Shown here piece after piece: positions 762-16,958 of a DNA stretch of 20,434 bases. The stretch covers positions 1 through 20,434 of the forward strand of contig JAADHJ010000048.1 in assembly GCA_013151915.1 (NCBI GenBank), in the 5' to 3' direction. A program made the position numbers and the translations under genes. Every line of letters starts with the position of its first letter. Position 1 is the stretch's first letter. The stretch is from Deltaproteobacteria bacterium. Lineage in GTDB: Bacteria > BMS3Abin14. Under the pieces are notes generated by a model that was not told the DNA's origin, did no database searches, and saw only the letters and a list, made by a program, of their open reading frames with translations.

Positions 762-1628
762 ATGTCGGATTCGATTCTGGTAACCGGTGCTACGGGAACC
801 CTTGGAAACCAGGTTGTGGAACAGTTGAGTCAGAGGGGTTACAAGGTGCGCGCGGCGGTACATTCTCCGGAGAGAGCCACGTCTCTTAACGGCAGAGCCA
901 ATGAGATAGTATCCCTCGACTTCAGCCGTCCTGAGACCTTTGAAAGGGCGCTGGACGGTATAGACAAGGTCTTTTTTCTCAGTCCCCCTACAGAAGACAT
1001 GGTGGAAACTGGAACAAGGTTTGCTGAATCGGCTAAAGAGGCGGGGGTCCGTCGCATCGTCCGCCAATCGGGCATGGGGGCTGATGCCGATCCGGGCATA
1101 ACCCTTGGGCACTGGCACCGGGGCGTCGAACGGGCAATCGAGGATACGGGAATGGAGTGGACCCACCTTAGACCGAACTCCTTCATGCAGAATTTCGTCG
1201 CCTTCATGTCACAGACGATAAAGGAACAGGGGACCTTCTACCTTCCATGGGGCGACGGCAATATCAGCCTTGTGGATGTGCGGGACATTGCAACGGTGGC
1301 GGTGGAGTCACTGACAGGCGATGGACATGAGGGACAATCATATGAGATCACAGGTCCTGAAGCCCTGTCTGGCGAGGATTGCTCCCGGATCTTTTCGGAA
1401 GTACTGAACCGGACCGTTCAGTACGTTGATGTCCCTGAAGATGCTGCCAGACAGTCCATGCAGGGCATGGGGATACCGGATTGGTACGTCGATGTCATCA
1501 TGGAGCTGTATGCTATCAACAAGGCCGGATATACAGCCGAAGTGAAAGATACTGTGGCGCGGGTTACGGGTAAAGATCCGCGTCATTTCGAGCAGTTCGT
1601 CCAGGATTACGTTGAGGTGTTCAGTTAG
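762..1628 (+). CDS. NmrA-like NAD(P)H-binding protein (atypical SDR / Rossmann fold)
   Basis: MSDSILVTGATGTLGNQVV is a Rossmann GxxGxxG N-terminus typical of the NmrA/SDR-a family. AGGAGG sits 6 nt before the ATG at 762; the track ORF from 708 is an upstream extension. Confidence 0.8.
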   Translation: MSDSILVTGATGTLGNQVVEQLSQRGYKVRAAVHSPERATSLNGRANEIVSLDFSRPETFERALDGIDKVFFLSPPTEDMVETGTRFAESAKEAGVRRIVRQSGMGADADPGITLGHWHRGVERAIEDTGMEWTHLRPNSFMQNFVAFMSQTIKEQGTFYLPWGDGNISLVDVRDIATVAVESLTGDGHEGQSYEITGPEALSGEDCSRIFSEVLNRTVQYVDVPEDAARQSMQGMGIPDWYVDVIMELYAINKAGYTAEVKDTVARVTGKDPRHFEQFVQDYVEVFS

Positions 1629-3028
1629 ATAATGCGGAAATTTTCCACCAGGGTACAGCGCCGCTGCCGTGTATAAGTGCGCGCCGAGGTTAACCCCTCA
1701 CCTGTCGGCCCGGCGATGGTGAAGGCGGTGTGGCCTTCGCCACCAAGACCAAGCCCGGCATAGGAGGGACCGTTCTTGACAAAAAGCGTGGTCTGAATGG
1801 CCCGGGCGAAGGCTGTCATGTTGTCCACATTGGTCGAGTGCATTATGGCCGTGTGCCGGTTGCCCTGTTCCACCTCTACGGCAAAATTAATTCCTTCCTG
1901 GACATTCGCCACTCGCACGATGGGCATGACGGGCATCATCTGCTCAATCCAGACAAGGGGGTGATCCTTACCGGCCTCGAATATGGCCAGCCGATACTCT
2001 TCCCCCAGTTCTATGCCCACCTCTTTGAGGATTACCTGGACATTTTTCCCGATAAAGGCGGGGTTGATCCTTCCCTCTTTGGTAACCACCAACTCTGTGA
2101 CCTTTTCCGCCTCGTCAGGTGTCAGGAAGTAGGCCTTGCCGGTTTCCTGCATGAACTTGATCAGGCAATCGACCACTTCGTCTACAGCGAGAACCTCTTT
2201 TTCACAGGTGCAGAAGATATTATTGTTGATGCTCGCTCCATCGACGATAGATTTGGCCGCATTTCGTATGTTGGCAGTTTCGTCCACCAGGACAGGCGGA
2301 TTTCCGGCGCCGGCCCCGATAGCTTTTTTACCCGAACGCAAGACCGCATTCACCGCCGCCTTGCCGCCTGTGGCCACCAGCATGTTGACCTTCGGATGTT
2401 TCATGATCTCCTTGGCCGTTTCCAAGGTAGGATGGCTGACGGAAGAGATCAGGCCGACAGGCCCTCCAACATCGACGATGGCCTGATGGAGCAGCCGAAT
2501 CATACCTGTGCTGGTCTCCCTGGCGCTGGGGTGTGGGTTGAAAACCACGGCATTTCCAGCGGCTATCATGCTGATGGAATTATGAATTACGGTGCCGGTG
2601 GGATTTGTGATGGGCGTCAGGGAACCGATAACTCCTACCGGGGCGTACTCCAGAAGAGTCAGGCCGTCGTCGCCGCTTTTGGCAACAGGTTGAATGTCCT
2701 CCGTACCGGGCGTTTTTGTGGAACAGAGAATGTTTTCCTTGACCTTATCCTCGAAACGGCCCAGCTTCGTTTCCCTTACCGCTATAGCGGACATCTTCTC
2801 ATTGTTATCAAGAGACGTTTTTCTCATGGCGGCGATCATCTTGTCCCGCTGTGCGAGGGTCATGGAAATCAACTTTTTTTGTGCCTGGACAGCGCCATTG
2901 ACGGCTTCCTCGACTGTCCGGTAAATACCATCACCATCGGGTTCGGCAACCGCAGGATTCTCCTCGCTCACGAGATTTTCCAGCACTTTCTGGATGACGG
3001 TGGTGACTAAATCCTGGTTGACATTCAT
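1625..3028 (-). CDS. pduP: CoA-acylating aldehyde dehydrogenase (PduP/EutE family) with N-terminal encapsulation-peptide-like helix
   Basis: ALDH-superfamily protein whose N-terminus (MNVNQDLVTTVIQKVLENLV) is followed by an acidic linker, as in PduP. The likely start is M30 of the track ORF, preceded by AAGGAGGAG. The upstream track extension starts with GTG and overlaps the neighbouring gene. This is the last gene of the minus-strand operon. Confidence 0.85.
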   Translation of the reverse strand: MNVNQDLVTTVIQKVLENLVSEENPAVAEPDGDGIYRTVEEAVNGAVQAQKKLISMTLAQRDKMIAAMRKTSLDNNEKMSAIAVRETKLGRFEDKVKENILCSTKTPGTEDIQPVAKSGDDGLTLLEYAPVGVIGSLTPITNPTGTVIHNSISMIAAGNAVVFNPHPSARETSTGMIRLLHQAIVDVGGPVGLISSVSHPTLETAKEIMKHPKVNMLVATGGKAAVNAVLRSGKKAIGAGAGNPPVLVDETANIRNAAKSIVDGASINNNIFCTCEKEVLAVDEVVDCLIKFMQETGKAYFLTPDEAEKVTELVVTKEGRINPAFIGKNVQVILKEVGIELGEEYRLAIFEAGKDHPLVWIEQMMPVMPIVRVANVQEGINFAVEVEQGNRHTAIMHSTNVDNMTAFARAIQTTLFVKNGPSYAGLGLGGEGHTAFTIAGPTGEGLTSARTYTRQRRCTLVENFRII

Positions 3029-3086
3029 TTTACTCCTCCTTGTTCGCGCTTCATCATCAAGTTTCGTCCGTAATATCTTTTTAAAG

Positions 3087-3668
3087 TCAGTTGCCGCAGG
3101 CTGCCAGAAAAACACCGCCGATCAGAATCTGCAGTTCCCGCCGATCCAGCGGCAAACCTTCCTTTTCAAGAGCAAGAGCCAAAGATTCCTCCAGATCATG
3201 GATCCATCCTGTATCCCGAAGGCCGGGCGTCAGAACCGATCTGAAATTTTCGGACCAGCGTTCCATCTCGACGAAAGCTTGAGTAACGGGTTCCGCGACC
3301 CGCATATCCTGTTCCACGGTTCCGCCGCTAATGCCGATGGCCCCCACAACTTCCCCATCGAACCAGAGAGGAAAACCGCCGCCGAACAGAATGATCCTCC
3401 CACCGTGCGTGTTCTGAATCCCGGAAAGTACACCGTCTGACCGGGCCAACCTGCCAAGCTCATCCGTTGGCATTCGAAGGGAAGCCGCAGTGAAAGCCTT
3501 GGAACGCGCTATCTCGGAACTGGCTGGAAGCGCCCCCTTCATACGGGCGAAAAATTGGAGGGAGCCCTCCTCATCCGCCAGGGCTATGGCCATGGGAACT
3601 CCCATATCCCGAGCGGCCGCTTCGGCAACAGCGCAAAGGATCCGGGCTATCGAATAGGGAAGCTTCAT
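3087..3668 (-). CDS. DUF336 / GlcG-like (PduO C-terminal-domain-like) heme-binding protein, stand-alone
   Basis: The motif GGGFPLWFDGEVVGAIGISGGTVEQDMRVA matches the GlcG/HbpS/PduO C-domain signature. It carries about 55 extra C-terminal residues of unknown nature. Confidence 0.75.
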   Translation of the reverse strand: MKLPYSIARILCAVAEAAARDMGVPMAIALADEEGSLQFFARMKGALPASSEIARSKAFTAASLRMPTDELGRLARSDGVLSGIQNTHGGRIILFGGGFPLWFDGEVVGAIGISGGTVEQDMRVAEPVTQAFVEMERWSENFRSVLTPGLRDTGWIHDLEESLALALEKEGLPLDRRELQILIGGVFLAACGN

Positions 3669-3681
3669 TATCTCGAACCTC

Positions 3682-4254
3682 TCATAAGGAACCCTCCAGG
3701 ATGGTTGCCAGTGCTTGATTCACCGTTGCTTCCACTTCCATGGCCCAAGCCAGGACAAAGATCAGATCCCCCAGCCGGTTGAAATAGGTGAGGAGACGTT
3801 CCGCCCTCCCCGACTCCATGTTCAGTTGAACGATGGCACGTTCGCCCCGGCGACAGACCGCCCTGGCGACATGAAGCACAGCGCTGTCAATTGAACTCCC
3901 AGGGATGACAAATCGTCCAGGCGAACCGTGGGATTCCTGAAATTCATCGATCCATTTTTCGATCTTCCTGACGTCCTCTTCACCGATGCGTTTTTTCAAT
4001 GAAATCCGGCTGTCGGGATTGGAGGCCAATTCCGAACTTGCGATGAAGATGTCCTCCTGCACGGAAAATATGACATCTCTTGCAGGATCGGACGTAATCA
4101 GGGCACGGGCGGTTCCGAGGTGACACTGGAGTTCGTCGAGAATACCATAGGTTTCGACACGCGTGTCACTCTTCCACACGGACTCACCGCTCAAAAGCCG
4201 TGTGCGCCCCTCGTCCCCTTTTCGGGTATATATCCTTTCCTCCGTGTCCCTCAT
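3682..4254 (-). CDS. pduO: PduO-type ATP:cob(I)alamin adenosyltransferase (N-terminal PduO domain only)
   Basis: IYTRKGDEGRTRLLSGESVWKSDTRVETYGILDEL matches the PduO-type adenosyltransferase N-terminal signature. At 190 aa it is the catalytic domain alone. Confidence 0.85.
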   Translation of the reverse strand: MRDTEERIYTRKGDEGRTRLLSGESVWKSDTRVETYGILDELQCHLGTARALITSDPARDVIFSVQEDIFIASSELASNPDSRISLKKRIGEEDVRKIEKWIDEFQESHGSPGRFVIPGSSIDSAVLHVARAVCRRGERAIVQLNMESGRAERLLTYFNRLGDLIFVLAWAMEVEATVNQALATILEGSL

Positions 4255-4389: not shown

Positions 4390-4659
4390 TTACTGAACGT
4401 CAATTTCATCAATAATCCCAATGATCGTTGCGTCCACGGGACACCCATCATCGCCTACCGCCTGCCGGGCACCACTCCCCTGAACAACAAAGACTCTTTC
4501 CCCCACACCGGCTCCCACAGCATCGATAGCAACCAGCGTCCCACCCTGGGGTTCCTCTGTCCTGGGATCCAGCGGCTGGATGACCTGGATCTTGCTGCCA
4601 ACCAGATTTTCATGCTTGCGTGTGGCTACGACTGTCCCAATGACGCGGGCGATTATCAT
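4390..4659 (-). CDS. pduN: BMC vertex pentamer protein (PduN/EutN/CcmL family, BMC-P)
   Basis: 89 aa with the MIIARVIGTVVATRKHENL N-terminus typical of EutN/PduN. AGGAGG ribosome-binding site upstream. Confidence 0.9.
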   Translation of the reverse strand: MIIARVIGTVVATRKHENLVGSKIQVIQPLDPRTEEPQGGTLVAIDAVGAGVGERVFVVQGSGARQAVGDDGCPVDATIIGIIDEIDVQ

Positions 4660-4683: not shown

Positions 4684-5490
4684 TCAGAATTCCTCATTAT
4701 CAGCCATCAGTATCCCATACCGGGCGGCAAGATCCTGAGCCAAAGGCGTGAAGCGCCATTGCGGCTGGACCATGACTGCAGCACCCAGACGTTGGGCGTG
4801 GTTGATGTCAGCCGCAGTAACCAGCGGACCCGCCGGCCTGAAGACCCTTCCATGTGTATCCGGGACGCCGGCAGTCCCTTCTTCTTGAAGATTTTCCCTG
4901 CTCAGAACGGTGTTCACTGTGTCTCGCAACCTGCCTACATCGGTCAACCGGCAACCGTAGGAAACCAGAGTGTCGAGGATATTGTCCATGGCATCCCGCA
5001 GGGCCTTCGATCCTCTGTGGAAGCCCAGTTCCTTCCGCCCATAGGCCGTGGGATCGACTCCATTTCGAGCCACGATCACCGGTTTGCCCATAAAAAGGCC
5101 GTGGAGAATACAGTTCGTTGCCGTGTTGTCGGCAATGAGCATCCTGATCTTGGCAGCAGTGTTGACGCTCAGCAAAGGCACGATCACCGCCCGGACCTGC
5201 TTGAGACATCCGAGCCAGTTCGCAGTGGAAACCCGGCCCTGATGGGGAAACCCGGCCAGCCCGTCGTGTATGACCGGTGCGTACAGCTGTTCGGCAGACG
5301 TAGTGAAGACCATCCTCACCTCATATCCGTCGAGGATAAGCCGGCGAAGCTGGTTCACAACCTCGCCCATTCCGACGGTAGCTCCCGAAAAAACCGCCAG
5401 CACAATTCCCTTACTGCCATCGGCGCCTACGATCGCGGCCACTTTTCCGACAACCTCATTGACGATATTCTGTATGATGCGCCCATCCAT
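4684..5490 (-). CDS. BMC-associated protein: PduM-like N-terminal helix + flavoprotein-fold (HFCD/PF02441-like) core + PduM-like C-terminal motif
   Basis: The N-terminus MDGRIIQNIVNEVVGKV is an amphipathic helix resembling encapsulation peptides and the PduM N-terminus. The middle resembles the flavoprotein (Dfp/CoaC-like) family: LAVFSGATVGMGEVVNQLRRL...VRMVFT and VIVPLLSVNTAAKIRMLIADN...PVIVARN. The C-terminus has a TPLAQDLAARYGI motif reminiscent of PduM. Functional assignment is tentative. Confidence 0.5.
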   Translation of the reverse strand: MDGRIIQNIVNEVVGKVAAIVGADGSKGIVLAVFSGATVGMGEVVNQLRRLILDGYEVRMVFTTSAEQLYAPVIHDGLAGFPHQGRVSTANWLGCLKQVRAVIVPLLSVNTAAKIRMLIADNTATNCILHGLFMGKPVIVARNGVDPTAYGRKELGFHRGSKALRDAMDNILDTLVSYGCRLTDVGRLRDTVNTVLSRENLQEEGTAGVPDTHGRVFRPAGPLVTAADINHAQRLGAAVMVQPQWRFTPLAQDLAARYGILMADNEEF

Positions 5491-5499
5491 GATAAGAAC

Positions 5500-6390
5500 C
5501 TAGGCCATCTTCCCACTTGACCGCATTGACATGGAGGACACCTGTTCATCGAAGCAGGTCAGGGCGATTCCAAGAGGTGTCACCAGCAGTGGATTACAGG
5601 GCTGTACAACCTCCAGGCCCGTCTGGTCCTGCATCACCTGGGCGATACCTGGAAAGCAGCTGGTGCCCCCCACCAGATAGATCGTCTCAATCGAGGGAAA
5701 CCCTGTTAAGTGGCGCTTTACAATGGAACCCATTTTCTCGAAAACCGGTCGGACAAGGTGGATGATCTCCATCTGCCGGGTGGTATCGCGTTTGAGTTTC
5801 TCCGCCAGGTGGGAGTCTATTTTAAAGTTGCCCGCAAGGACCAGATCCACGTGGATGCCGCCCGTCGGTTCATCGGCTGAATATATAACCTCTCCACCCT
5901 CCAGGATGGAGATCCCCGTCGTTCCCCCACCGACATCAACCACGGCGCCATCCATGATTTCCAAAGCCCGTGAGGCTGCGCTTGGTTCATCCATCATGCC
6001 GACCACTTCCAGCCCGGCCGCCTCCAGAATATTGGAAAATGCCCTGGCATTCGGCCCGGAGGTACCGGGCGGGTAGGCGACCGCGGCAGACCGAATGGGA
6101 TAGCCGCCTTCCTGAAGGTCCTTCACCTGCCGGCGCAGGATCGCAACAGCTCCCAGGTAATCGAACACCAGCCCGTCCCGGACACTTGAATGGCTGCGGG
6201 TGAGCGCTCCAGCCACCGGATTTCTTTCGGCATCCACCACCGCCGTCACGATGTATGCTGTGCCAAGATCAACGCCTGCGGACAGGGGTCCATCGACTCC
6301 CCGCTTACCGTTCAGGTCCAGAGACAATGCGAAGGCATTTATCCTTCCATTTGCCGTTTCGTTGACATGGTTTGACAGGTTCCGGTTCAC
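5500..6390 (-). CDS. eutJ: EutJ-like actin/Hsp70-fold ATPase (putative chaperone)
   Basis: GVDLGTAYIV, VVDVGGGTTGISIL and EPTGGIHVDLVLAGN match EutJ. A GTG start overlaps the stop of the upstream gene (GTGA), suggesting translational coupling. Confidence 0.85.
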   Translation of the reverse strand: MNRNLSNHVNETANGRINAFALSLDLNGKRGVDGPLSAGVDLGTAYIVTAVVDAERNPVAGALTRSHSSVRDGLVFDYLGAVAILRRQVKDLQEGGYPIRSAAVAYPPGTSGPNARAFSNILEAAGLEVVGMMDEPSAASRALEIMDGAVVDVGGGTTGISILEGGEVIYSADEPTGGIHVDLVLAGNFKIDSHLAEKLKRDTTRQMEIIHLVRPVFEKMGSIVKRHLTGFPSIETIYLVGGTSCFPGIAQVMQDQTGLEVVQPCNPLLVTPLGIALTCFDEQVSSMSMRSSGKMA

Positions 6391-7007
6391 ACTTCTTTTC
6401 CTGTGAGGCGCTGCAAACTGGTTTCCGCGGCACTGGTAGCCCGTTCAACATCAGACTGTTTTCCACCGAGGTATAGGCGACCCACCGCACCGTAGGTCCT
6501 GCAATCCACAAGGGTGATGCGTGAGTTTTTTTCCGCCTCGTTGGCCGCGAGTGTAATGTAGGCCGCGGGTTGAACTTCCAGGATGTAAAGATCCTGCCCC
6601 GGAAGCAGCATCGAGCTGAGGCGTGAAACGTTGACCATCTGGGCGTGATAGGGGTTGACCTTGTGGATCACCTGAGAACTGAGGATCTTCGGTTTGATCC
6701 GGTCCTCGATCTTCAGTCCAAGTGTCTTCAGAACCGCTTGACCGGCGTGCTTCACCTCCTCCTGGGTCTGGGCGTGAAATTCCAGAACACCAAAGTGTCT
6801 TTCCACCACCATCATTCCAGGCTGGACGTTGGCCGATTTGAGGGCCGCGTCGGTCACATCGTTTATCTTGACCCCTGGAGATATCTCCACCAGGATTGCA
6901 GCCATCCCCGGAACAGGAATATAACCCCGGGCATTGGCCCCCATATAGGCGGCAAACTGGGGCTGTAATCGATCCAGGTACACGTATGAACGTAGTTCCA
7001 CTGTCAT
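6387..7007 (-). CDS. BMC-T shell protein (tandem permuted BMC domains, PduB/EutL-like, short form)
   Basis: Two BMC-like repeats (DAALKSANVQ..., AANEAEKNSRITLV...GRLYLGGKQSDVERATSAA) in 206 aa. The distinctive N-terminus ELRSYVYLDRLQPQFAAYMG suggests a permuted order like PduB/EutL. Confidence 0.75.
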   Translation of the reverse strand: MTVELRSYVYLDRLQPQFAAYMGANARGYIPVPGMAAILVEISPGVKINDVTDAALKSANVQPGMMVVERHFGVLEFHAQTQEEVKHAGQAVLKTLGLKIEDRIKPKILSSQVIHKVNPYHAQMVNVSRLSSMLLPGQDLYILEVQPAAYITLAANEAEKNSRITLVDCRTYGAVGRLYLGGKQSDVERATSAAETSLQRLTGKEV

Positions 7008-7555
7008 TTTTCTCTCCTTGCCGAACTATCGCCCGGCTTTCCCCTGGTCCTTTTTCCCGCAGCTCCACTCTTGCGGCCTGAAGTCTTACGGCCTGTTTTT
7101 CTTGGAGTGCTTTTTTTCCCGGCTCCTGTGGAATCCGGATCAGGTTTTTCTTTAGCAGCAGTCACGGCAACCTCGATCTCCATGGAAGCCGATTCCGCTT
7201 CGGGTTCCACGGCCGGTTCGTCTGAACTCTTCTCAGAGGGCTCAGGCTCTTCCTGCACCTTTTCGAGCTCATCCGGAGCAGTGGGCGCGGACGGTTTGAT
7301 TGGAATCTGATCGTCCGGCCGGGGGATCACGTGACTGGCAGTGAGAGTACCGATCTTTTCAGCCGCCGCGGTTCCCGCAGCCACCGCGGCCTGCACTGCT
7401 CCAACGTCACCGAGAAACTTGACCGTAACCAGCCCCTCCAGTGTTATTTCGTATCCGAGGAAAACCACATCGGCTGACTTCGTGGCCGCATCCGCCGCTT
7501 CAATGGCGGCTGTGTATCCCATGGTTTCGATAAGACCAAGGCTTCGTTTTTTCAT
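7004..7555 (-). CDS. BMC-H shell protein (PduA/EutM-like) with ~95-aa disordered acidic-then-basic C-terminal tail
   Basis: Canonical BMC domain (LGLIETMGYTAAIEAADAATKSADVVFLGYE...GDVGAVQAAV...HVIPRP). It is followed by a Pro/Glu-rich acidic stretch and an Arg/Lys/Gly-rich terminus (KKSTPRKTGRKTSGRKSGAAGKRTRGKPG). Confidence 0.85.
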   Translation of the reverse strand: MKKRSLGLIETMGYTAAIEAADAATKSADVVFLGYEITLEGLVTVKFLGDVGAVQAAVAAGTAAAEKIGTLTASHVIPRPDDQIPIKPSAPTAPDELEKVQEEPEPSEKSSDEPAVEPEAESASMEIEVAVTAAKEKPDPDSTGAGKKSTPRKTGRKTSGRKSGAAGKRTRGKPGDSSARREK

Positions 7556-7608
7556 TGGACGCCTCTACCTTTCCAGTTCAATTTTGACAACCCGCCCCGG
7601 GATGCATG

Positions 7609-8109
7609 TTACGCGTACATCCCGCCTGATGGACTTTTTGCGAGGCCATCAATTTTAGCTATGGCTTCTCTGACCAGCTGTTCCAACTGCTCCTGGGAAA
7701 ACTTGATGGGACAAAAAGCATCCGGCTCGCCATCAGATCCGTCGGCGAGGATCATGGGATTGCCCTTCACCAGACGCGCTGCGTTGGCCCCGAGGTTCCT
7801 CAAGGGTGTTTCTTCCAGGGGTCCGGGACCAAGGATGAAAAGCGGTGTTTTCTCCGGCAGATCCCGGTGGTGTAAAACCGCGAATCCCCGATCTTCGTCA
7901 ACACCGACCCCCACGCCGACCGGTGACCTGTCGGCAGCTTGTTTGGCCATGTTTTCAGGGGGACCCTGTTTCGCCTCGAAGATCTTTGCGGGAACACCCT
8001 CTTCTTCCAGGCCCAGCAGGATTCTTTCCACTATCCTGGAGCCGGAAAGCCCCGTCCCATAGATATAGACGGCGGGTTTGTCTTCAGGTTGTGCGAACCT
8101 CGGATTCAT
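7609..8109 (-). CDS. pduH: Diol/glycerol dehydratase reactivase small (beta) subunit (PduH/DhaG/GdrB-like) with C-terminal extension
   Basis: LGLEEEGVP, SPVGVGVGV and LRNLGANAARLVK match DhaG/PduH. An extra ~45 C-terminal residues contain an amphipathic helix (SQEQLEQLVREAIAKIDGL). Confidence 0.8.
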   Translation of the reverse strand: MNPRFAQPEDKPAVYIYGTGLSGSRIVERILLGLEEEGVPAKIFEAKQGPPENMAKQAADRSPVGVGVGVDEDRGFAVLHHRDLPEKTPLFILGPGPLEETPLRNLGANAARLVKGNPMILADGSDGEPDAFCPIKFSQEQLEQLVREAIAKIDGLAKSPSGGMYA

Positions 8110-8120
8110 GGCCGATTCTC

Positions 8121-9944
8121 TCAGTTTTCCCCGTTCACGTACGCCAAAACCAGTCCTGTCGCAACAGCATTGCGTGGACCCTCCACACCCCTGACATTGG
8201 CTCTGCCGGTCACCACTCCACTTTCCACAAGGACATCGGAGATCATTTTTGGGATCTCAAAATCAAGCGCCGATCCTCCAACAAGAGCGACAAAGCTGAT
8301 GAGCCGGATATTGCCGGCAGGAGCGATCCTCTCAAGGGCACGCAACGCATTTCGAACGAAAACCCTTTTTTTCGCATTCTGACGAACCTGAACGATCTTC
8401 GATAAAGGTTCGCTGATCTCCAGGGGAATGGGCCCTTCACCGCCAAGAACCACAACTCGTCCAAAGAGCCTGGGTTCGAGGGGTTCATGAAAAAACTGAA
8501 CCGAACCATCCTCATGACGCATATGAAAAAGGGTTTCCACCTTGGCCAGGGGATTAACCTTGATCCTTTCAGCCAGATCACGGTCGTCCAGCCCGAGTTC
8601 CGTATCGATGAGCAAGGTGACCATGTCTCCCGCACCGGCCAGATGGATGCTTTTGATCTCACCGGCCTCGCTGATCAGGGAAGCATCCGTCGATCCCCCT
8701 CCCAGGTCCAGAATGGCCATAGGAGGTTTGAGACCCGGCGTAGTGAGCGCGCCGCGTATAGCCATCTCAGCTTCTACACCCCCGATGTTGGTAGAAACCG
8801 AGATCTCCTCTTCCAGTTTCCTGGCAAGACGCTGCATGGGGAGTTTATGGGTTTTTACCATCGCTGCCAGTCCTACGGCATTACCCATGGAATACTCTCC
8901 CGCCAGGCTTCCTAAAACCCTTTGGGGTTTCAAGGTATCTACAGCGAGTATGTCCTGAACCTGGATGGCGCTCACAGGCTGATCCGTCAGGTCGGCCATG
9001 ACTGTCCGGACATGTTCGAACATTCCTCCCACATGGGTCCCAGCTTCGGCCTGAATTTCCAGCAGCGGAGAGACGAGAGCCACCTTTTTCATAATAGCTT
9101 CAGCCCCCTCCTCCACCTTCACCACTTCCTTCCGGTTTTCCCCCATCAATACGATGCTTCCAGCCGGGATTCGGCGTTCCTCGATGTCTCCCCTGGGTGT
9201 TTTAATCACCACGGCGCTTCGTGTGCCCATGAGAGCCCTGGCTATGGGGACCACCTGTCTGGTCTCATCGGGATCCAGATCAAAGAGCGTGGCAATATCG
9301 TAGGGGTTGGACAGCTTCTCGATCGTCCTGCCCTGCGAGGCGACCTCAACAGCCGCAGGCATGTCCAGGGGAACCCTGTCAACATGTCTTACCTCGTCCA
9401 CAATGGGGATAGACCTGTGCAGCCGGTTATTGATGAGCACCGCGTCGTCCTTCTGGACGATGGCACCAGCCACAATGAGGTCCCTCGAAATTGCCCTGGT
9501 CAACCGCTCGGCCGCTTCTTTGAAGCCGAATTCACCGGGAATGATCACGATCCAGGGTCCAGACACCTGGGTCGTTTCCAGTTGGTCGAGGGTGATGGTC
9601 GTCCCGATGCCAAGACCTAATCCTCCGGGGGTCCCGGGATTGTGACCGATCATGGCTGATTCGGTGATGACGGTTTCTGTGATCGTCTCCATGGCTACAT
9701 CACCGATGACAGGCGCAGCCTCGTTAAGAAGGATCAGGCTGAGGTCATTTCGCTCAAGTCCCGCCAACGCAAGGCTCTTATCCAGAGCATCGATGACCCC
9801 CAAAGCATTGCGTATGGTCCCCTTGATCCCTATGGTTCTTACCAGGGAACTGGAAAGTATGTCCGCTTTGCCCGCTGTGGCCACTCTCCCTATGGCAACC
9901 TCAGTCGAGTTGTTTCCAACGTCTACCCCGGCGATAAAAGTCAT
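8121..9944 (-). CDS. pduG: Diol/glycerol dehydratase reactivase large (alpha) subunit (PduG/DhaF/GdrA-like)
   Basis: 607 aa. An N-terminal ATPase motif (MTFIAGVDVGNNSTEVA) and a second actin-like motif (ILDLGGGSTDASLI) are typical of reactivase alpha subunits. Confidence 0.9.
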   Translation of the reverse strand: MTFIAGVDVGNNSTEVAIGRVATAGKADILSSSLVRTIGIKGTIRNALGVIDALDKSLALAGLERNDLSLILLNEAAPVIGDVAMETITETVITESAMIGHNPGTPGGLGLGIGTTITLDQLETTQVSGPWIVIIPGEFGFKEAAERLTRAISRDLIVAGAIVQKDDAVLINNRLHRSIPIVDEVRHVDRVPLDMPAAVEVASQGRTIEKLSNPYDIATLFDLDPDETRQVVPIARALMGTRSAVVIKTPRGDIEERRIPAGSIVLMGENRKEVVKVEEGAEAIMKKVALVSPLLEIQAEAGTHVGGMFEHVRTVMADLTDQPVSAIQVQDILAVDTLKPQRVLGSLAGEYSMGNAVGLAAMVKTHKLPMQRLARKLEEEISVSTNIGGVEAEMAIRGALTTPGLKPPMAILDLGGGSTDASLISEAGEIKSIHLAGAGDMVTLLIDTELGLDDRDLAERIKVNPLAKVETLFHMRHEDGSVQFFHEPLEPRLFGRVVVLGGEGPIPLEISEPLSKIVQVRQNAKKRVFVRNALRALERIAPAGNIRLISFVALVGGSALDFEIPKMISDVLVESGVVTGRANVRGVEGPRNAVATGLVLAYVNGEN

Positions 9945-9960
9945 ACACCGAAAACCCCGA

Positions 9961-10530
9961 CTATTTCTTTAAACGTCCGCGTCCCTCATACACCACCGCT
10001 GCTTCGTGGACCAGAGCGGCACAGACACGGGCGTCGTATTTGGATTCCAACTCTCCGGCGATGTCCAGGAGCTCCTGTTTGGTGGACCGGTAAGGTCTCA
10101 TAGCATTGTATATCTCCAGGACTCGTTCATCCGGGATTCTGGTCAGTTCCGCGGCTCTGCGCAGGTTTGCGGCCAGGCTTGGACGTCCCGCACTTTCAGC
10201 GATCTGGGCCTGATATTCCAGGGTTTCAGGGCGAATCTTAATGTCTTCGAAAGACAAGCTTCCTTCTACGACTTTGTCGAGAGTTATATCTTCGAGTTTC
10301 AGACCGCTGGCGGACTGGACCAAATCGGGCCGATTGTTGGCAAGAGGATAATCCCTTTTCGCGTCAAGCCCCTCTTTCGAGCCGGCGGGCTGCCGAGCGC
10401 CCCCGCCCGATTCGCCCTGTATCGCGGACATCACCTGCTTGACCACCTCCGCTACGCGATCGGGGGAAATATCAAGGCCTTTGGCCTTGATCATGTCTTC
10501 CACCTTTTTGGACATATAATCGTCAGCCAT
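9961..10530 (-). CDS. pduE: B12-dependent diol/glycerol dehydratase small (gamma) subunit with ~50-aa N-terminal extension
   Basis: The core (DYPLA...DITLDKV...LEYQAQIAE...RRAAELTRIPDERVLEIYNAMRPYRS) matches PduE/DhaB3. The N-terminal extension has an amphipathic helix (SPDRVAEVVKQVMSAI) followed by a Gly-rich linker. Confidence 0.9.
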   Translation of the reverse strand: MADDYMSKKVEDMIKAKGLDISPDRVAEVVKQVMSAIQGESGGGARQPAGSKEGLDAKRDYPLANNRPDLVQSASGLKLEDITLDKVVEGSLSFEDIKIRPETLEYQAQIAESAGRPSLAANLRRAAELTRIPDERVLEIYNAMRPYRSTKQELLDIAGELESKYDARVCAALVHEAAVVYEGRGRLKK

Positions 10531-10594
10531 GATTTCCTTTCCTTGTTACCGGGTTATCCTGCTATCCGCAGGAAAGTTTCAACCTGGCCTGGAA

Positions 10595-11233
10595 CTAGAT
10601 GGAAAGCTCAACCGTTTTCCTGTTCTGATCCACCGCCTGGACTTCTTTGTTGTGAAGCAGAGCCGCCAGCCCCTGGTAGCGGGGTCTGGCCATGGGATCG
10701 TTGCGAACAGGAACAGGATTGGGGCTCTCACCTTTTGCATACTTGGCCGCATTGCGTCCGATGGCTCTGAACGTCTCCAGTTCCACCAGAGGTGACTGGG
10801 AGAACAGCTCCAGGTTCTGCAGAGGAGCCAGGTCTTTCTGGTGGATCACTGTGGTTCCCCGGGAAAGAATGCCTATGCCGATTCCCGATCCACTGAGTTT
10901 AGCAGCCTCGTGACCAATGAATGCCACGTCAGCGGTCCTGTAAACCCTGACAAGTCTGGGATGAAGGCCTTCCTCTTCAATTCCGGCCATCAGTTCCCGC
11001 AGGACCTCCCTGTGGGGAAGCCCGATAATCGTCTTGGTCATTGTCCTGCCGAATGCCTGCGGGAGCCCGATAACGACCTCGCTACGATCAGTCCCCGGTT
11101 CAGCTTCTCCATCTTCGGTCATATCCATCGGTGGGACATCCACATCAGCGTTAAATCCGGAATCCTCTTCTCCCTGCATCTGCCCGAGGACCTCAAGGAT
11201 AATCTGTTTCACCATCTCTTCAGAAATTTTCAT
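10595..11233 (-). CDS. pduD: B12-dependent diol/glycerol dehydratase medium (beta) subunit with N-terminal encapsulation peptide
   Basis: The core (GIEEEGLHPRLVRV...LSGSGIGIGI.SRGTTVIHQKDL.PLQNLELFSQSPL) matches PduD/DhaB2. The N-terminus MKISEEMVKQIILEVLGQM resembles the PduD encapsulation peptide and is followed by an acidic linker. Confidence 0.9.
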   Translation of the reverse strand: MKISEEMVKQIILEVLGQMQGEEDSGFNADVDVPPMDMTEDGEAEPGTDRSEVVIGLPQAFGRTMTKTIIGLPHREVLRELMAGIEEEGLHPRLVRVYRTADVAFIGHEAAKLSGSGIGIGILSRGTTVIHQKDLAPLQNLELFSQSPLVELETFRAIGRNAAKYAKGESPNPVPVRNDPMARPRYQGLAALLHNKEVQAVDQNRKTVELSI

Positions 11234-11259
11234 TACATATATCCTCCACTCCGGCAGCG

Positions 11260-12927
11260 CTATACGTCCTCAGGACTGATTGCCTGGGGGATGTTCTTGA
11301 GTATCTCCCACCTTTCCCCATCCAGACGATACCCTGTCCCGGGCCCCTCGTAATCGTTGGGATCATTCACGGCACTCAGAACAACGAAATCATCATCGAA
11401 TATGGCGGAGGTATGGAGATAATCCCCGGAAACTTTCTGTTTGAGCATGTTCAGGACTCCTTCCGCCACGTCCTTGAAACCATGTTTTGCAAGAGCACGA
11501 ACCACATCCAGCCCGTTTCCTCCCCGTTTCATGAATTCGTCGATGCTGCGCAGATCCTCCGGTACGTTCCGATCGGGCACATCTTTGCTGCCATGGGCAT
11601 AAGTAACCGCTTCCACCTCTGCATCGGTAATCGGCGGCAATCGCAGTTCCTCAAAGATAGCCTGGAGCGCTCGGGCGGCTTTGTTCCGAATAGCGATAAT
11701 ATCCTCCTCATTCACCGGACGCAGGCCGCCATCGACCTGGAAATCCCTCTGAAGAACCAGATAATCATCGTAATCGTCACAATCGTGCGTGGATCCGGCG
11801 AACATGTTGTCGTAGTTGGGAACAGTGCTGTATCCCGAGAAGATAAAATCTGTGCCGGGCAGAAATTGCATGAGCATTCGTGCCGTATTGCGGATAGGAG
11901 AATGAGTGAAGGTCTGATCATTGCCGGACGCCACCTCCATGTCCATCAGGACGGTCGCGATGTTCTCAGCCAGAACCGCTCGAATCCCGGAAGGCACAGC
12001 CCCCGGAACTCCTATGCAGCTGATCGAACCGTTCTGAAGACCCTGTACACCTGCGCCCTTGGTGATCATGACACAGCGGATTTCGAGGTAGAGCATGGAT
12101 TTGCGTTCCGCATAACCCATCTGCACCTCTGAGCCCGTCCCGGAGGTGAACCTCATCTTCACTCCCCTAGAGGCGTAGGCCGATGCCAGAAAGGCCTTTG
12201 ACCAGGGGGTATCATCCCCATCAACGAAAACCTGCTCGGTGCCGTAAACGGAAACCGTTTCCGCGTATGCGGTCAGCCCCCGCATCCCCATGGTGAGTTC
12301 CAGCGCCTCTTCCACAGCGCACTGCGTCAGCACACCGGGACGACCCGTCTGGGAACCTACAAGTATGGAGAGCGCATTCATGGGAGCGTAGCGTCCCACA
12401 CCCACAGTGGTTTCCAGTTCCGTAAATCCGCGAAAAGCCCCTTCCGCCGCATCAGCTGCCAGAAGAGCGGGGGTATCTTTGAGGTTGGTGACATGGCCCT
12501 GGTTTGACGGTGTTCGCCTCGCCCGGAGCTTCTGCATGGTCATCATGAGCTCGACCACATTCATTACCTTGAGGATATCGAGGATCTTGGCCGGAGTCAT
12601 TCCGACAGCCAGGCGAACGATTTCGGATCTCGGTACATGGATGTCCACCAGCATACGGGCGAACTCCACCGAATCGATGGCCATGGCTTCAGCGGCCACT
12701 TCTGTGTCAATGCAGTGGTCGGCAATCCAGGTGTCGATCATATCGAATTCCCGGCGGGGTTTCCCGTCCAGTTCCACTACTTTTCCACTTTCAATCCTGA
12801 TCCCAGGTTCAGGGTCGTAGGGGCTATCCATAGCGACCAGACCTACTTCGACCCATTCTTTAATAAAGCCGTCCTTATTAACCGAACGATCGGCCAATAC
12901 CTGGAAGCGTTTCTGTCTTTTGCTCAT
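11260..12927 (-). CDS. pduC: B12-dependent diol/glycerol dehydratase large (alpha) subunit
   Basis: 555 aa. MSKRQKRFQVLADRSVNKDGFIKEW and many blocks (e.g. SGTGSEVQMGYAE..., TKGAGVQGLQNGSISCIG) are typical of PduC/DhaB1/GldA-alpha. Confidence 0.95.
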   Translation of the reverse strand: MSKRQKRFQVLADRSVNKDGFIKEWVEVGLVAMDSPYDPEPGIRIESGKVVELDGKPRREFDMIDTWIADHCIDTEVAAEAMAIDSVEFARMLVDIHVPRSEIVRLAVGMTPAKILDILKVMNVVELMMTMQKLRARRTPSNQGHVTNLKDTPALLAADAAEGAFRGFTELETTVGVGRYAPMNALSILVGSQTGRPGVLTQCAVEEALELTMGMRGLTAYAETVSVYGTEQVFVDGDDTPWSKAFLASAYASRGVKMRFTSGTGSEVQMGYAERKSMLYLEIRCVMITKGAGVQGLQNGSISCIGVPGAVPSGIRAVLAENIATVLMDMEVASGNDQTFTHSPIRNTARMLMQFLPGTDFIFSGYSTVPNYDNMFAGSTHDCDDYDDYLVLQRDFQVDGGLRPVNEEDIIAIRNKAARALQAIFEELRLPPITDAEVEAVTYAHGSKDVPDRNVPEDLRSIDEFMKRGGNGLDVVRALAKHGFKDVAEGVLNMLKQKVSGDYLHTSAIFDDDFVVLSAVNDPNDYEGPGTGYRLDGERWEILKNIPQAISPEDV

Positions 12928-12957: not shown

Positions 12958-13767
12958 TCAGATATAAGGCTCGGTCACAGGTTTGGGTACATCACCCCAT
13001 GCGCCCAACAACTTGATGCCAACCTCGCGGCCGGAAATCACAGCCTGGCGTACCGCACCGGAATCACCGCTGACCCAGATCATGACTTCGTTGGTCAAAC
13101 TGGTGCCTTTCGCCGGCGATGCATACCCTACGACCTCCACGTCCGCAGCCTTGACCGCGGTGTCGATCATAAGCACCCCAATAACCGCAGGGGCCCCGAG
13201 GATCAACCCGAACGCTTTTCCTTCGGGGGTATTGAACACCTTATGCAGTCCCCTGCTGGCCCTGGCCGTATACTGAAGCTCCAGATGCCCCTGATCGTTG
13301 GTATAAACGTCACCGAAATATTTGGGCAGCGTCTCAAGGGTGACCTCAACAGCGCGCCGGGCATCCGAAACGTCCTCGGCGGCAAACACGATCAGGTTTC
13401 CATGGCCCGCTCCACCTTTCGTATCCCTGGGCATTTCAATGGATACGATTTCAGTGTTGGTAGCCTTGACGGCATCGTCGGCAGCCATAATCTGCGGTCC
13501 GGCGCCGATACGACCACCGATAACCCCGATGGACCGATATTTATTATCGATTCCCATCAGATCCTGGATGATGGGATCCAGGTTTGCGATCACGATACCC
13601 TGGGTTTCCCCCAGGCCGACCCCGACGAACTCCGTCACCTGGACCAGGTCCTCCGAAGGCACCGGGTTGCTGGAACGCTGTTCCGGCGCGACTTTTTCAT
13701 CGGACTGGGCAGAGCCGACCCTGCTCATCACTTCCGCTAAAACTTTGTTAATTAATTCCTCTTGCAT
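12958..13767 (-). CDS. pduB: PduB-type BMC-T shell protein (tandem permuted BMC domains)
   Basis: Near-colinear match to PduB: RSIGVIGGRIGAGPQIMAADDAVKATNTEIVSIEMPRDTKGGAGHG...GDVY.N..GH.ELQYTARAS...VISGDSGAVRQAV. Confidence 0.9.
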   Translation of the reverse strand: MQEELINKVLAEVMSRVGSAQSDEKVAPEQRSSNPVPSEDLVQVTEFVGVGLGETQGIVIANLDPIIQDLMGIDNKYRSIGVIGGRIGAGPQIMAADDAVKATNTEIVSIEMPRDTKGGAGHGNLIVFAAEDVSDARRAVEVTLETLPKYFGDVYTNDQGHLELQYTARASRGLHKVFNTPEGKAFGLILGAPAVIGVLMIDTAVKAADVEVVGYASPAKGTSLTNEVMIWVSGDSGAVRQAVISGREVGIKLLGAWGDVPKPVTEPYI

Positions 13768-13820: not shown

Positions 13821-14108
13821 CTAACTGGACTCCACAGACTTGGGCAGGATCTTTTCCACATCCTGATGAGGCCTCGGAATGACGTGAACGGACACAACTT
13901 CACCGACCTTCTGGGCGGCGGCGGCACCCGCGTCGGTTGCGGCCTTGACGGCCCCGACGTCACCGCGGACCATGGTGGTCACAAGCCCGGCCCCGATCTT
14001 GACGTTGCCCACCAACACTACATTGGCTGCCTTGACCATGGCATCCGCGGCTTCAATGTTGGGGACCAGCCCCCTTGTTTCGATCATTCCCAACGCTTCC
14101 TTAATCAT
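13821..14108 (-). CDS. pduA: BMC-H shell protein (PduA/PduJ-like)
   Basis: [34 protein letters not shown]...GDVGAVKAA...HVIPRP. The likely start is M21 of the track ORF, preceded by a GGAGA ribosome-binding site. Confidence 0.9.
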
Positions 14109-14153
14109 GATACTTTCTCCTATCACCCTGCCGGGTACGGTAAACAACAGCTT

Positions 14154-14180
14154 CGGGGGGCGCTCCAACAGCAGCCCCCG
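14154..14180 (-). other. GC hairpin in gldA-to-shell-gene spacer (possible partial terminator/attenuator or processing site)
   Basis: CGGGGG...CCCCCG 6-bp GC stem with a ~15-nt loop. On the minus strand it is followed by AAGCUGUUGUUUA, which is only weakly U-rich. It lies in the 143-nt gap between gldA and the first shell gene. Confidence 0.3.
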
Positions 14181-15787: not shown

Positions 15788-16186
15788 TTATTCACTATTC
15801 AGCATATAGAAAGAGGTGATGTTCGAACCCTCATGGAGAGCCCTGACAATTTGGGCCAGTTCCTTGGATTCAATGCTTTTCAGGACGTAAGCGTCTGCAC
15901 CGGCAACAACCGCCTCGTTTATGCTGTTTTCATCGTCATAAGACGACAGAACAACCACTTTAGTCTGAGGAAAGTTCTTCTTAAGCGTCCTGATAGTTCT
16001 GAAGCATGAAAAACTGTTTCCGTTCAGGTCGATCAAGCAGACGTCCGGCGGGTCGAGTCTCATCCGGTCGATGGATTGCATGCCGTCCCAGGAAGCATCC
16101 ACTGAAATGATATCTTCTTCACAATCAAGGCTGTATTTCAGTGCTGTTCTGTAAAGCGGATCTTGGTCAGCAAAAAATATTTTCAT
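15788..16186 (-). CDS. Stand-alone response-regulator receiver domain (CheY-like)
   Basis: MKIFFADQDPLYRTAL...CLIDLNG...VVVLSSY...YVLKS carries the receiver signature residues (acidic pair, Asp, Ser/Thr, Lys). GGAGGTGG ribosome-binding site before the ATG at 16186. There is no output domain. Confidence 0.8.
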   Translation of the reverse strand: MKIFFADQDPLYRTALKYSLDCEEDIISVDASWDGMQSIDRMRLDPPDVCLIDLNGNSFSCFRTIRTLKKNFPQTKVVVLSSYDDENSINEAVVAGADAYVLKSIESKELAQIVRALHEGSNITSFYMLNSE

Positions 16187-16229
16187 TACCACCTCCATTA
16201 TGTTTGGCAATAGAGGGTCGTCCTGAGGC

Positions 16230-16889: not shown

Positions 16890-16958
16890 TGTCCTGTCCT
16901 TCAGGCCACCGCCTGAACCACATCTGTGATCAACAATTATTGAAAGCGGCTGACATCA

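Follow-up and report, generated by a model that had tools for sequence, protein, structure and literature searches.

What replaces PduS in a cobalamin-dependent microcompartment locus that appears to lack it? The question is raised by the 20,434-nucleotide contig of a Deltaproteobacteria bacterium analyzed here (JAADHJ010000048.1, assembly GCA_013151915.1; hereafter the window), across which no PduS-like gene was found, as an initial annotation had observed. The same annotation drew attention to a gene two upstream of the PduO-type adenosyltransferase, a position that our gene order of window gene, PduN and PduO bears out. It proposed that the product is either a novel cobalamin reductase or electron-transfer module, or an expanded PduM that has acquired a flavin-binding fold.

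The minus-strand reading frame opens with ATG and encodes 268 amino acids. Around 78 full-length homologues with 39–97% identity back this frame, while the overlapping plus-strand ORF at 4759–5520 has no comparable homologue support, and the frame is confirmed as a real gene of a B12-dependent propanediol/glycerol (Pdu-type) microcompartment operon. Its AF2 model (mean pLDDT 89.7) describes a protein of three modules, an N-terminal helix, a flavoprotein-fold core and a short C-terminal module, separated by linkers (Table 1). The protein belongs to a large, uncharacterized family of 1134 clusters. Conservation was read from a broad alignment of 68 members (A3), whose overall identity is only about 25%, and the strict FMN motif was counted in 249 family proteins and 56 PduM proteins and the C-terminal module in the 249 family proteins. 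The locus also encodes two BMC-H proteins (13821–14168 and 7004–7555) and two BMC-T proteins (12958–13767 and 6387–7007). A search for related loci with a smaller alignment (A5) returned only 11 close loci, each of them in a MAG of Deltaproteobacteria or Acidobacteriota; a tblastn search of plasmids with a Firmicutes family member gave no match, and Rfam detected neither a riboswitch nor any other RNA in the window.

Table 1. Features of the window gene and its neighbors (window coordinates).
Feature	Residues	Position	Strand	Basis
Complete gene for a three-module microcompartment protein of 268 aa ("long PduM-slot flavoprotein")		4684..5490	-	ORF, homologues, AF2
Amphipathic helix, putative encapsulation peptide/signal sequence	1-20	5431..5490	-	Model, hydrophobic moment, hhalign
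Gly/Ala-rich linker behind helix	21-27	5410..5430	-	Coil in model; length variable, gapped in A3
PF02441 flavoprotein-fold core domain	28-204	4879..5409	-	
Gly-rich phosphate-binding loop SGATVG	35-40	5371..5388	-	Aligned to human PPCDC TGS(V/I)AA
W92, at HFCD catalytic His position	92	5215..5217	-	Profile alignment to human PPCDC
PASANT-type FMN-binding motif PLLSVNTAAKIRMLIAD	105-121	5128..5178	-	Column-for-column with PPCDC
Linker, weakly conserved	205-221	4828..4878	-	pLDDT <50 at 205-211; variable, gapped in A1
PduM/EutQ-type module, putative shell-binding	222-264	4699..4827	-	hhalign, family profiles
EutJ-like actin/Hsp70-fold ATPase, upstream neighbor		5500..6390	-	Pfam MreB_Mbl, HSP70, PilM_2, FtsA matches
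PduN/EutN-type pentamer (BMC-P), downstream neighbor		4390..4659	-	Pfam EutN_CcmL, E 1.4e-31
PduO-type ATP:cob(I)alamin adenosyltransferase, second gene downstream		3682..4254	-	Pfam Cob_adeno_trans, E 3.1e-47

The genomic position of the gene recurs across the Pdu-type loci that we surveyed. Each of the 21 loci, the window and 20 fetched ones, has the family gene just upstream of PduN-PduO-PduP, with one BMC shell gene intervening in L021, and in most surveyed loci a gene for the EutJ-like ATPase directly precedes it. The E. coli order is pduL-pduM-pduN-pduO-pduP, so that pduM, which encodes a structural protein in Salmonella and E. coli, sits in exactly this slot; the slot is defined by pduL (or pduK) on one side and pduN-pduO-pduP on the other. 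Canonical PduM was not found in any of the 21 Pdu-type loci carrying the family gene; the PF02441-fold family gene occupies the pduM slot and is mutually exclusive with canonical PduM in the surveyed loci. A fusion of PduL to the family flavoprotein was also found, mirroring the adjacency of pduL and pduM.

The flavoprotein fold that the initial annotation had discerned by eye was borne out by sequence profiles, the model and conserved FMN motifs. Residues 33–141 match Pfam PF02441 with 28.8 bits (gathering threshold 22.7; E 1.1e-6), and 62 of the 68 aligned family members match the same Flavoprotein model. A direct search of the window protein against PDB sequences gave no match, and only profile and fold searches succeeded; in the model the core adopts a Rossmann-like alpha/beta fold that superimposes on solved PF02441 members, with the redox protein DmrB as the closest structural match. 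The SGATVG loop, T63 and the segment PLLSVNTAAK...D121 align with the FMN-phosphate motifs of human PPCDC, TvaF and DpaB; T63, which is Ser in most relatives, fits the Ser/Thr that follows beta-2 in the FMN motif, and PLLSVNTAAKIRMLIAD aligns with APLDANTLGKVASGICD of human PPCDC column by column. In the broad alignment the loop retains G36 in 65/68 and T/S35 in 64/68 members, and the PASANT-type motif retains P105 (66/68), S/T108 (67/68), N110 (61/68), T/S111 (64/68), K114 (65/68) and D121 (64/68). FMN-motif positions are therefore 90–99% conserved in a family of about 25% overall identity, with G36, S63, P105, K114 and D121 each above 94%, and the strict motif [ST]xN[ST]xxKx6D is present in 208/249 family proteins, compared with 0/56 PduM proteins. 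This pattern suggests that the core domain probably binds FMN. A general electron-transfer role is compatible with the conserved FMN motifs and with DmrB as best structural match.

The window protein shares its FMN-phosphate motifs with DmrB/AfpA, the HFCD decarboxylases (EpiD, CoaC, AtHAL3a and TvaF), UbiX and DpaB, at 14–22% sequence identity. It differs from this superfamily in carrying an additional targeting-type helix at its N-terminus and a BMC module at its C-terminus, and in a genomic context that, for its family, consists exclusively of microcompartment loci. Membership of PF02441 by both sequence and fold, weak matches to CoaBC, DpaB and UbiX models, and the fusion or frequent adjacency of the family gene to PduL would suit a catalytic HFCD/UbiX/DpaB-type enzyme, such as a cysteine decarboxylase, for example one with a pantetheine precursor as substrate, a flavin prenyltransferase, or an enzyme that works with PduL in CoA/acyl-phosphate chemistry. 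However, every score falls well under the equivalog cut-offs (for CoaBC, TIGR00521, 21.7 bits compared with 219.7). In the profile alignment, W92 faces the His of LHIDL in human PPCDC, and the window protein lacks the catalytic His represented by EpiD His67 and AtHAL3a His90. The position is W in 43/43 close family members and W, P, L or I in the broad family. HFCD decarboxylase function was rejected on account of the missing His; to our knowledge, moreover, Pdu metabolism offers no substrate for decarboxylase- or prenyltransferase-type chemistry, and we regard an enzyme of this group as very improbable.

The core is flanked by two modules that point toward PduM, as the initial annotation had claimed for both termini. 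At the N-terminus, MDGRIIQNIVNEVVGKV is predicted to form a helix over residues 3–20 (pLDDT 84–88) with a hydrophobic moment of 2.15, a value reached by 1.25% of shuffles, and its amphipathicity is comparable to that shown by the N-terminal ends of PduD, PduP, PduB and PduE from the same locus. A coil linker (21–27) separates this terminal amphipathic helix from the folded domain, which is the architecture of an encapsulation peptide. A BLASTP alignment of 86 aa joined the window protein to the PduM N-terminus with 29% identity (pairwise E 1e-4), and hhalign aligned its first 22 residues with PduM residues 1–22 at 36% identity (78% probability, E 1.7e-5). At the level of sequence, the helix thus resembles the PduM signal sequence, residues 1–23, an experimentally validated signal that directs GFP to the microcompartment core (PMC12108088); loss of pduM causes core and shell to come partly apart (PMC12108088).

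At the other end of the protein, the PduM-like TPLAxDLA motif noted at the outset proved to belong to a module of about 45 residues that is C-terminal in 245/249 family proteins. It corresponds to the ...VTALAREAA...-type module of PduM: the family aligns with the PduM C-terminus (residues 115–163) with 93% probability (hhalign, E 3e-7), and the family C-terminal HMM matches PduM at approximately residues 121–163. The family module also matches residues 2–50 of E. coli EutQ (96.6% probability, E 5.5e-10), to which the window segment is 32% identical. Both links, to PduM and to EutQ, depend on the profiles of the family, the window protein's own C-terminal 53 aa having given no match when searched alone. 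Among the C-terminal segments of 35 members, 24 matched TIGR02536, 23 PduM (NF011957) and 17 the EutQ models. A search of the module's profile against the PDB gave only spurious repeats of designed TIM barrels, which leaves the module with no solved structure.

The match to EutQ is informative as to function, since the H1/H2 region of that protein (residues 9–41) binds the shell, with EutM and EutL as partners, and loss of eutQ separates the shell from its cargo (PMC12487888). At the level of family profiles, this H1/H2 region is homologous to the family's C-terminal module, yet the arrangement differs. EutQ carries the module at its N-terminus, ahead of cargo-binding helices and a cupin acetate-kinase domain, while in the window protein it lies behind the flavoprotein domain, and cargo association would fall to the N-terminal helix.

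TIGR02536 ("eut_hyp") is also related; its alignment (residues 97–255) spans the second half of the core together with the C-terminal module. The window protein is not a member, since it scores 24.6 bits compared with a cut-off of 152.6 (relatives reach 59.6 bits); TIGR02536 proteins are about 207 aa long and are found in ethanolamine loci, in contrast to a 268-aa protein in a Pdu-type locus. At the level of PF02441, the family may further be likened to flavoprotein accessory genes noted inside EUT2B/2D and GRM3 microcompartment loci, often beside an EutJ homologue, for which a "possible electron shuttle" has been suggested (Axen et al., 2014; PMC4207490). We found no functional study of BMC-locus PF02441 genes after that 2014 survey in the literature searched.

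How far does the relationship to PduM extend? The window protein does not match the PduM models PF15953 and TIGR04493 at E <= 10. Within the family, PF15953 (PDU_like) gave sub-threshold C-terminal matches in 10/68 members, and TIGR04493 gave relatives at most 30 bits, likewise C-terminal, compared with a cut-off of 50. Canonical PduM is 163 aa long; where the window protein has a full PF02441 core with FMN motifs, the central 90 aa of PduM show no significant similarity to that core and carry no FMN motif. A middle-region match to PduM with E 6.7e-5 is not relied on: its register departs from that of the run's extended main alignment, and after removal of the terminal modules no significant match was left in this region; the trimmed flavoprotein core aligned with PduM residues 22–112 at E 0.12, compared with 0.23 for the reversed control. 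The AF2 model of PduM (pLDDT 81.8) has no significant match among PDB folds (best E 0.06; UbiX 0.24, EpiD 0.32), and with the core alignment no better than its reversed control, the idea of canonical PduM as a decayed flavoprotein was not borne out. The literature searched yielded nothing linking PduM with a flavoprotein. These comparisons establish homology to PduM for the modules at both ends but not for the core.

The proposal of an expanded PduM is half right. The slot and the terminal modules uphold the relationship, but gain of a flavin fold by PduM is probably the wrong direction: the long form has a much wider distribution than canonical PduM and shares homology with an ancient superfamily.

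The shared slot and terminal modules also accommodate a purely structural equivalent of PduM, in which the flavoprotein fold is a cofactor-less relic serving solely as an oligomerization scaffold. Canonical PduM functions without a flavin motif (PMC12108088), and some family members have degraded motifs (P0199, for example, reads ATLSRTT). Retention of the strict motif in most of the family, together with more than 94% conservation of the key residues, would be difficult to account for if no ligand were bound, however. Such strongly conserved FMN motifs speak for a core that is more than a scaffold and for a purely structural reading being incomplete; we consider this reading unlikely.

The remaining possibility, that the protein stands in for PduS, can be weighed against the distribution of the family. 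It would act in the lumen, either as a cobalamin reductase or by donating electrons to PduO, with an FMN domain that reduces cob(III)/cob(II)alamin or passes electrons to PduO-bound cob(II)alamin. Reduced flavins or flavoproteins can serve PduO-type adenosyltransferases as reductants, the FMN-binding motifs are conserved in the family, the gene lies close to PduO, and PduS was found neither in the window nor in any surveyed Deltaproteobacteria or Acidobacteria locus. PduS itself is an FMN protein encoded near PduO in Pdu loci, as is predicted of the window protein, but the two share no sequence or domain similarity. PduS comprises Complex1_51K (NADH/FMN), SLBB, Fer4_17 and RnfC_N domains and carries two [4Fe-4S] clusters (RnfC-like), and Pfam detected none of the Complex1_51K, SLBB or [4Fe-4S] modules in the window protein, which has neither an NAD(P)H-binding domain nor an Fe-S motif.

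Furthermore, five Pdu loci (L007, L008, L009, L021 and L022) encode PduS and also have the family gene in this slot, so PduS and the family are not alternatives. Two further loci with family members (L025 and L026) encode neither diol dehydratase (PduCDE) nor adenosyltransferase (PduO) within 10 kb. The family is thus independent of both PduS and the B12 enzymes. The enterobacterial slot is filled by PduM, which has no flavin motif, and PF02441 flavoproteins, alike at that level, occur in B12-independent GRM3 loci (Axen et al., 2014; PMC4207490). A PduS-like function was rejected because of domain content and co-occurrence with PduS. The replacement-reductase proposal of the initial annotation is poorly supported by this distribution, and we judge a role as electron donor to PduO to be quite improbable.

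Taken together, the pduM slot, the helix, the flavin-type fold and the shell-binding-type tail make a shell-to-cargo connector, perhaps a flavin-carrying one, likelier than the missing B12 reductase. With confidence a little above even, we propose that the product of the window gene takes the PduM position in a B12-dependent diol-dehydratase microcompartment of PDU1D type and serves, encapsulated and probably with FMN bound, as a linker of shell and cargo or as an assembly factor. In this proposal the N-terminal amphipathic helix would carry the protein to the cargo core in the way that the 1–23 signal does for PduM, and the C-terminal module, by its homology to the EutM/EutL-binding H1/H2 of EutQ, would touch the shell. 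The central PF02441-fold domain, probably FMN-binding, is probably also oligomeric like its trimeric, dodecameric and 24-meric relatives, which would make the protein a multivalent tether. A lumenal redox function may come with the flavin, comparable to the union of linker and enzyme domain in EutQ.

A more far-reaching reading, which we hold to be somewhat unlikely, is that the family represents the full-length ancestral PduM, that a shell-docking module is common to PduM, TIGR02536 and the EutQ N-terminus, and that the FMN core is a lumenal redox hub. If this were true, the protein would be a multivalent FMN tether passing electrons inside the compartment, to cob(II)alamin bound on PduO, for instance, or to keep NAD+/NADH in balance, and would be bifunctional, structural and redox, by analogy with EutQ (linker and acetate kinase). 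PduM, which is required for proper assembly of the Pdu microcompartment and has been reported to lack known homologues outside Pdu microcompartments, would then gain an evolutionary origin and a testable mechanism.

The family connects PduM, with which it shares the slot and two terminal modules, with EutQ's shell-binding region and with the flavoprotein superfamily, and so provides a concrete, testable model of how PduM-slot proteins may tie cargo to shell. The N-terminal helix and the C-terminal module are candidate portable tags for engineering, for targeting to the core and to the shell, respectively. With this family, a conserved and probably flavin-binding protein is recognized inside many microcompartments.

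The AlphaFold2 model of the target (43 sequences, mean pLDDT 89.7, pTM 0.73), read together with the sequence, divides its 268 amino acids into three modules: an N-terminal helix, a flavoprotein-fold core and a C-terminal module. Residues 3-20 form the helix, which is followed by a Gly/Ala-rich linker; the N-terminal segment, RIIQNIVNEVVGKV, is strongly amphipathic, with a hydrophobic moment equalled by only 1.25% of shuffles. The core, residues 28-204, is a Rossmann-like alpha/beta domain that scores 28.8 bits against Pfam PF02441 'Flavoprotein' (gathering threshold 22.7), and Foldseek matches the model to UbiX, EpiD and CoaBC at E about 2e-6, bearing out the flavoprotein-type core proposed in the initial annotation. 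In profile alignments to solved PF02441 members, SGATVG (35-40) falls on the N-terminal phosphate loop and PLLSVNTAAK...D (105-121) corresponds column for column to the 'PASANT...K...D' motif of the HFCD cysteine decarboxylases. FMN-motif positions are kept at 90-99% across 68 aligned sequences that share only about 25% identity with the query, and the strict [ST]xN[ST]xxKx6D motif occurs in 208 of 249 family proteins; this conservation is good indirect evidence that the family would bind FMN or a similar ligand, and we regard a cofactor-less structural relic as a minority possibility. The position of the HFCD catalytic histidine is occupied in the profile alignment by Trp92, a Trp invariant in the close family; an EpiD/CoaC-type decarboxylase was therefore rejected, and an HFCD/UbiX-like or PduL-linked enzyme appears very improbable. 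A subset of family proteins (P0132, P0149, P0157 and P0199) has a CxC / CPxC-type cysteine pair just past the 'AARNxADP' strand, as in PECFCSG, ANCPCIA or ANCPRCG. The window protein lacks this pair, which could serve that subgroup as a metal or redox site.

Beyond a variable linker of low model confidence (residues 205-221), residues 222-264 fold into a small beta-alpha-beta-beta-alpha-beta module with the motif VTAxDV..A...G..L......TPLAxDLA...G. The profile of this module aligns in hhalign with residues 2-50 of E. coli K-12 EutQ (96.6% probability, E 5.5e-10; 32% identity to the window segment), and 17 of 35 family C-terminal segments match positions 2-46 of the EutQ model. The same module aligns with PduM residues 115-163 (93% probability, E 3e-7), and 23 of the 35 segments match the NCBIfam PduM model. 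At the other end, the first 22 residues are 36% identical to the PduM consensus MNGExLQRIVEEVVSRLQRRA (hhalign with the C-terminus trimmed, E 1.7e-5; pairwise BLASTP, E 1e-4), so that the PduM-like character claimed earlier for both termini stands. Full-length members (n=68) match Pfam PDU_like in 10 cases and Flavoprotein in 62; the window protein itself reached none of the PduM models. Whereas the termini are common to both families, core homology lacks significant support: the central 90 residues of PduM align with the flavoprotein core at E 0.12, against 0.23 for the reversed control, the FMN motif occurs in none of 56 PduM sequences, and an AlphaFold model of PduM (pLDDT 81.8) gave no significant fold matches. 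TIGR02536, a family of ~207-aa proteins encoded in ethanolamine loci, aligns with target residues 97-255, and relatives reach up to 59.6 bits against its model; this suggests that shortened versions of the architecture exist.

By its Pfam assignments, the surrounding minus-strand operon is a microcompartment locus for a B12-dependent diol/glycerol dehydratase, and the target sits precisely where pduM stands in the canonical pduL-pduM-pduN-pduO-pduP order of the E. coli pdu operon (L004). In all 20 related Pdu-type loci tabulated by tblastn, the family gene lies just upstream of PduN-PduO-(HbpS)-PduP, with one shell gene intervening in L021, and canonical PduM was found in none of them. The target family and PduM thus have two terminal modules and a genomic slot in common. 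One natural fusion of 477 aa (P0198/P0232, L009 10001-11434) joins the phosphotransacylase PduL (PTAC) N-terminally to a family member, echoing the pduL-pduM adjacency; several further loci have PduL as the gene next upstream of the member.

Genes of the window operon and its upstream regulators, with stretches of two fetched loci that contain family members
Feature	Positions	Strand	Basis or content
Fe-ADH	14252-15358	-	Pfam Fe-ADH plus Fe-ADH_2
BMC-H	13821-14168	-	Pfam
PduB-type BMC-T	12958-13767	-	Pfam
PduC	11260-12927	-	Pfam
PduD	10595-11233	-	Pfam
PduE	9961-10530	-	Pfam
PduG	8121-9944	-	Pfam
PduH	7609-8109	-	Pfam
BMC-H, long basic tail	7004-7555	-	Pfam
CsoS1D-type BMC-T	6387-7007	-	PF27545 CsoS1D_N plus BMC
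EutJ-like ATPase (actin/Hsp70-fold)	5500-6390	-	Pfam
Target	4684-5490	-	ORF, ATG start
PduN	4390-4659	-	Pfam
PduO adenosyltransferase	3682-4254	-	Pfam
HbpS-like/DUF336 protein, separate gene	3087-3668	-	Pfam
PduP	1625-3115	-	Pfam
PocR-sensor kinase + two response regulators	15788-18650	-	upstream of operon
L025 stretch	7431-12379		class II aldolase, two BMC-H, PTAC, member, aldehyde dehydrogenase; PVM-like
L026 stretch	5146-8341		PTAC, radical-SAM/SPASM protein, member

The locus matches the 'unusual' PDU1D loci described from Proteobacteria and one Acidobacterium with a BMC-T^dp shell protein (PMC8217296). Its double-permuted CsoS1D-type BMC-T agrees with the 'unusual outlier' BMC-T^dp reported only from PDU1D loci (PMC8217296), and was kept in all Deltaproteobacteria and Acidobacteria relatives surveyed by tblastn and missing from Firmicutes-type loci. 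The two PduO domains, adenosyltransferase and HbpS-like/DUF336, are adjacent separate genes here; E. coli (L004) and the Firmicutes-type loci (L007-L009, L021-L024) have them fused. The tailed BMC-H carries a PduK-like C-terminal extension of ~100 aa in which Pro, Glu, Lys and Arg are abundant, with a strongly basic stretch at its end. The EutJ-like ATPase lies directly upstream of the target, as in most related loci of the tblastn table; 'a flavoprotein, a EutJ homolog' were listed together for GRM3 loci by Axen 2014 (PMC4207490), and the pairing may be functional. The operon is headed by an iron-type alcohol dehydrogenase, and because no PduL, PduW or PduQ-type gene lies downstream of PduP in the window, the operon seems to encode a minimal pathway of dehydratase, aldehyde dehydrogenase and one alcohol dehydrogenase. 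Upstream, a PocR-sensor/PAS histidine kinase, a LuxR-type response regulator and a stand-alone receiver domain form a two-component Pdu regulation, in contrast to the AraC-type PocR of enterobacteria. No Rfam family reached its gathering score over positions 1-20434; this B12-dependent operon therefore has no cobalamin riboswitch beside it, whereas the pdu/cob region of E. coli has one (L004 10151-10325). A secreted-looking 230-aa protein at 19347-20039 (-), whose C-terminal end VPEPSTLLLLGTGLVGLAGFRRKF resembles a PEP-CTERM sorting signal, has no relation to the microcompartment locus.

The initial annotation had placed target, PduN and PduO in their correct order and had noted the lack of PduS; Pfam and tblastn found no PduS, PduL or canonical PduM in the 20,434-nt window. 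From this lack it had been proposed that the target could be a cobalamin reductase or electron donor for PduO in place of PduS, and PduS is likewise missing from L023, L024 and every surveyed Deltaproteobacteria or Acidobacteria locus. The argument from the lack of PduS fails when loci are compared. In five Firmicutes-type Pdu loci (L007, L008, L009, L021, L022) a bona fide PduS (Complex1_51K/SLBB/Fer4_17/RnfC_N) co-occurs with a family member in the pduM slot. Within 10 kb of the members in L025 and L026 there is neither a diol dehydratase or reactivase nor a PduN or PduO gene. L025 has a PduS-like gene 8 kb downstream, and no recognisable shell gene was seen within the examined stretch of L026. 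Axen et al. (2014) reported a PF02441 flavoprotein, possibly of another family than the target's, in B12-independent GRM3 loci, and also in EUT2B/2D loci, which themselves encode PduS, and assigned it only the role of 'possible electron shuttle' (PMC4207490). The target moreover lacks both an NAD(P)H-binding and an Fe-S module. A dedicated replacement for PduS is thus distinctly unlikely; a generic lumenal redox role is possible, since the motifs are conserved and the fold is DmrB/AfpA-like.

In a 2025 study, H1/H2 of EutQ (residues 9-41) bound the shell proteins EutM/EutL, and loss of eutQ separated the shell from cargo (PMC12487888). PduM(1-23) brought GFP to the core of the Pdu compartment, and deleting pduM left core and shell partly separated (PMC12108088). 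Taken together, these results make a shell-cargo linker the most economical reading of how the window protein would work: its N-terminal helix would lie within the cargo core, its C-terminal module would dock on the shell, and the flavoprotein-fold domain, probably oligomeric, would sit between them. Targeting, shell binding, flavin binding and oligomerisation are all predicted here from homology and context, and we somewhat favor an encapsulated PduM-equivalent linker, probably with an FMN-binding core.

A search of 5.8 billion proteins returned 78 homologues (39-97% identity, nearly all 260-290 aa), and the family profile detected 1134 clusters at E <= 1e-3, 578 of them at E <= 1e-10, among 1.84 billion representatives; the best 150 of the 1134 are mostly full-length (about 245-295 aa), the remainder being shorter fragments and the 477-aa fusion. 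Near relatives were found in Deltaproteobacteria (Syntrophobacteraceae, Desulfobacterales) and Acidobacteriota MAGs, and remoter ones in Firmicutes, among them Formimonas, Thermanaerosceptrum and Geosporobacter; NCBI labels these remoter proteins just 'flavoprotein' or 'hypothetical protein'. The 2014 survey already listed PF02441 genes from microcompartment loci (PMC4207490). The links drawn here, namely equivalence to the pduM slot, common N- and C-terminal modules, and a C-terminal module that corresponds to the shell-binding region of EutQ, were not found in the searchable literature. The target family overturns nothing, but it makes the role of PduM more directly testable.
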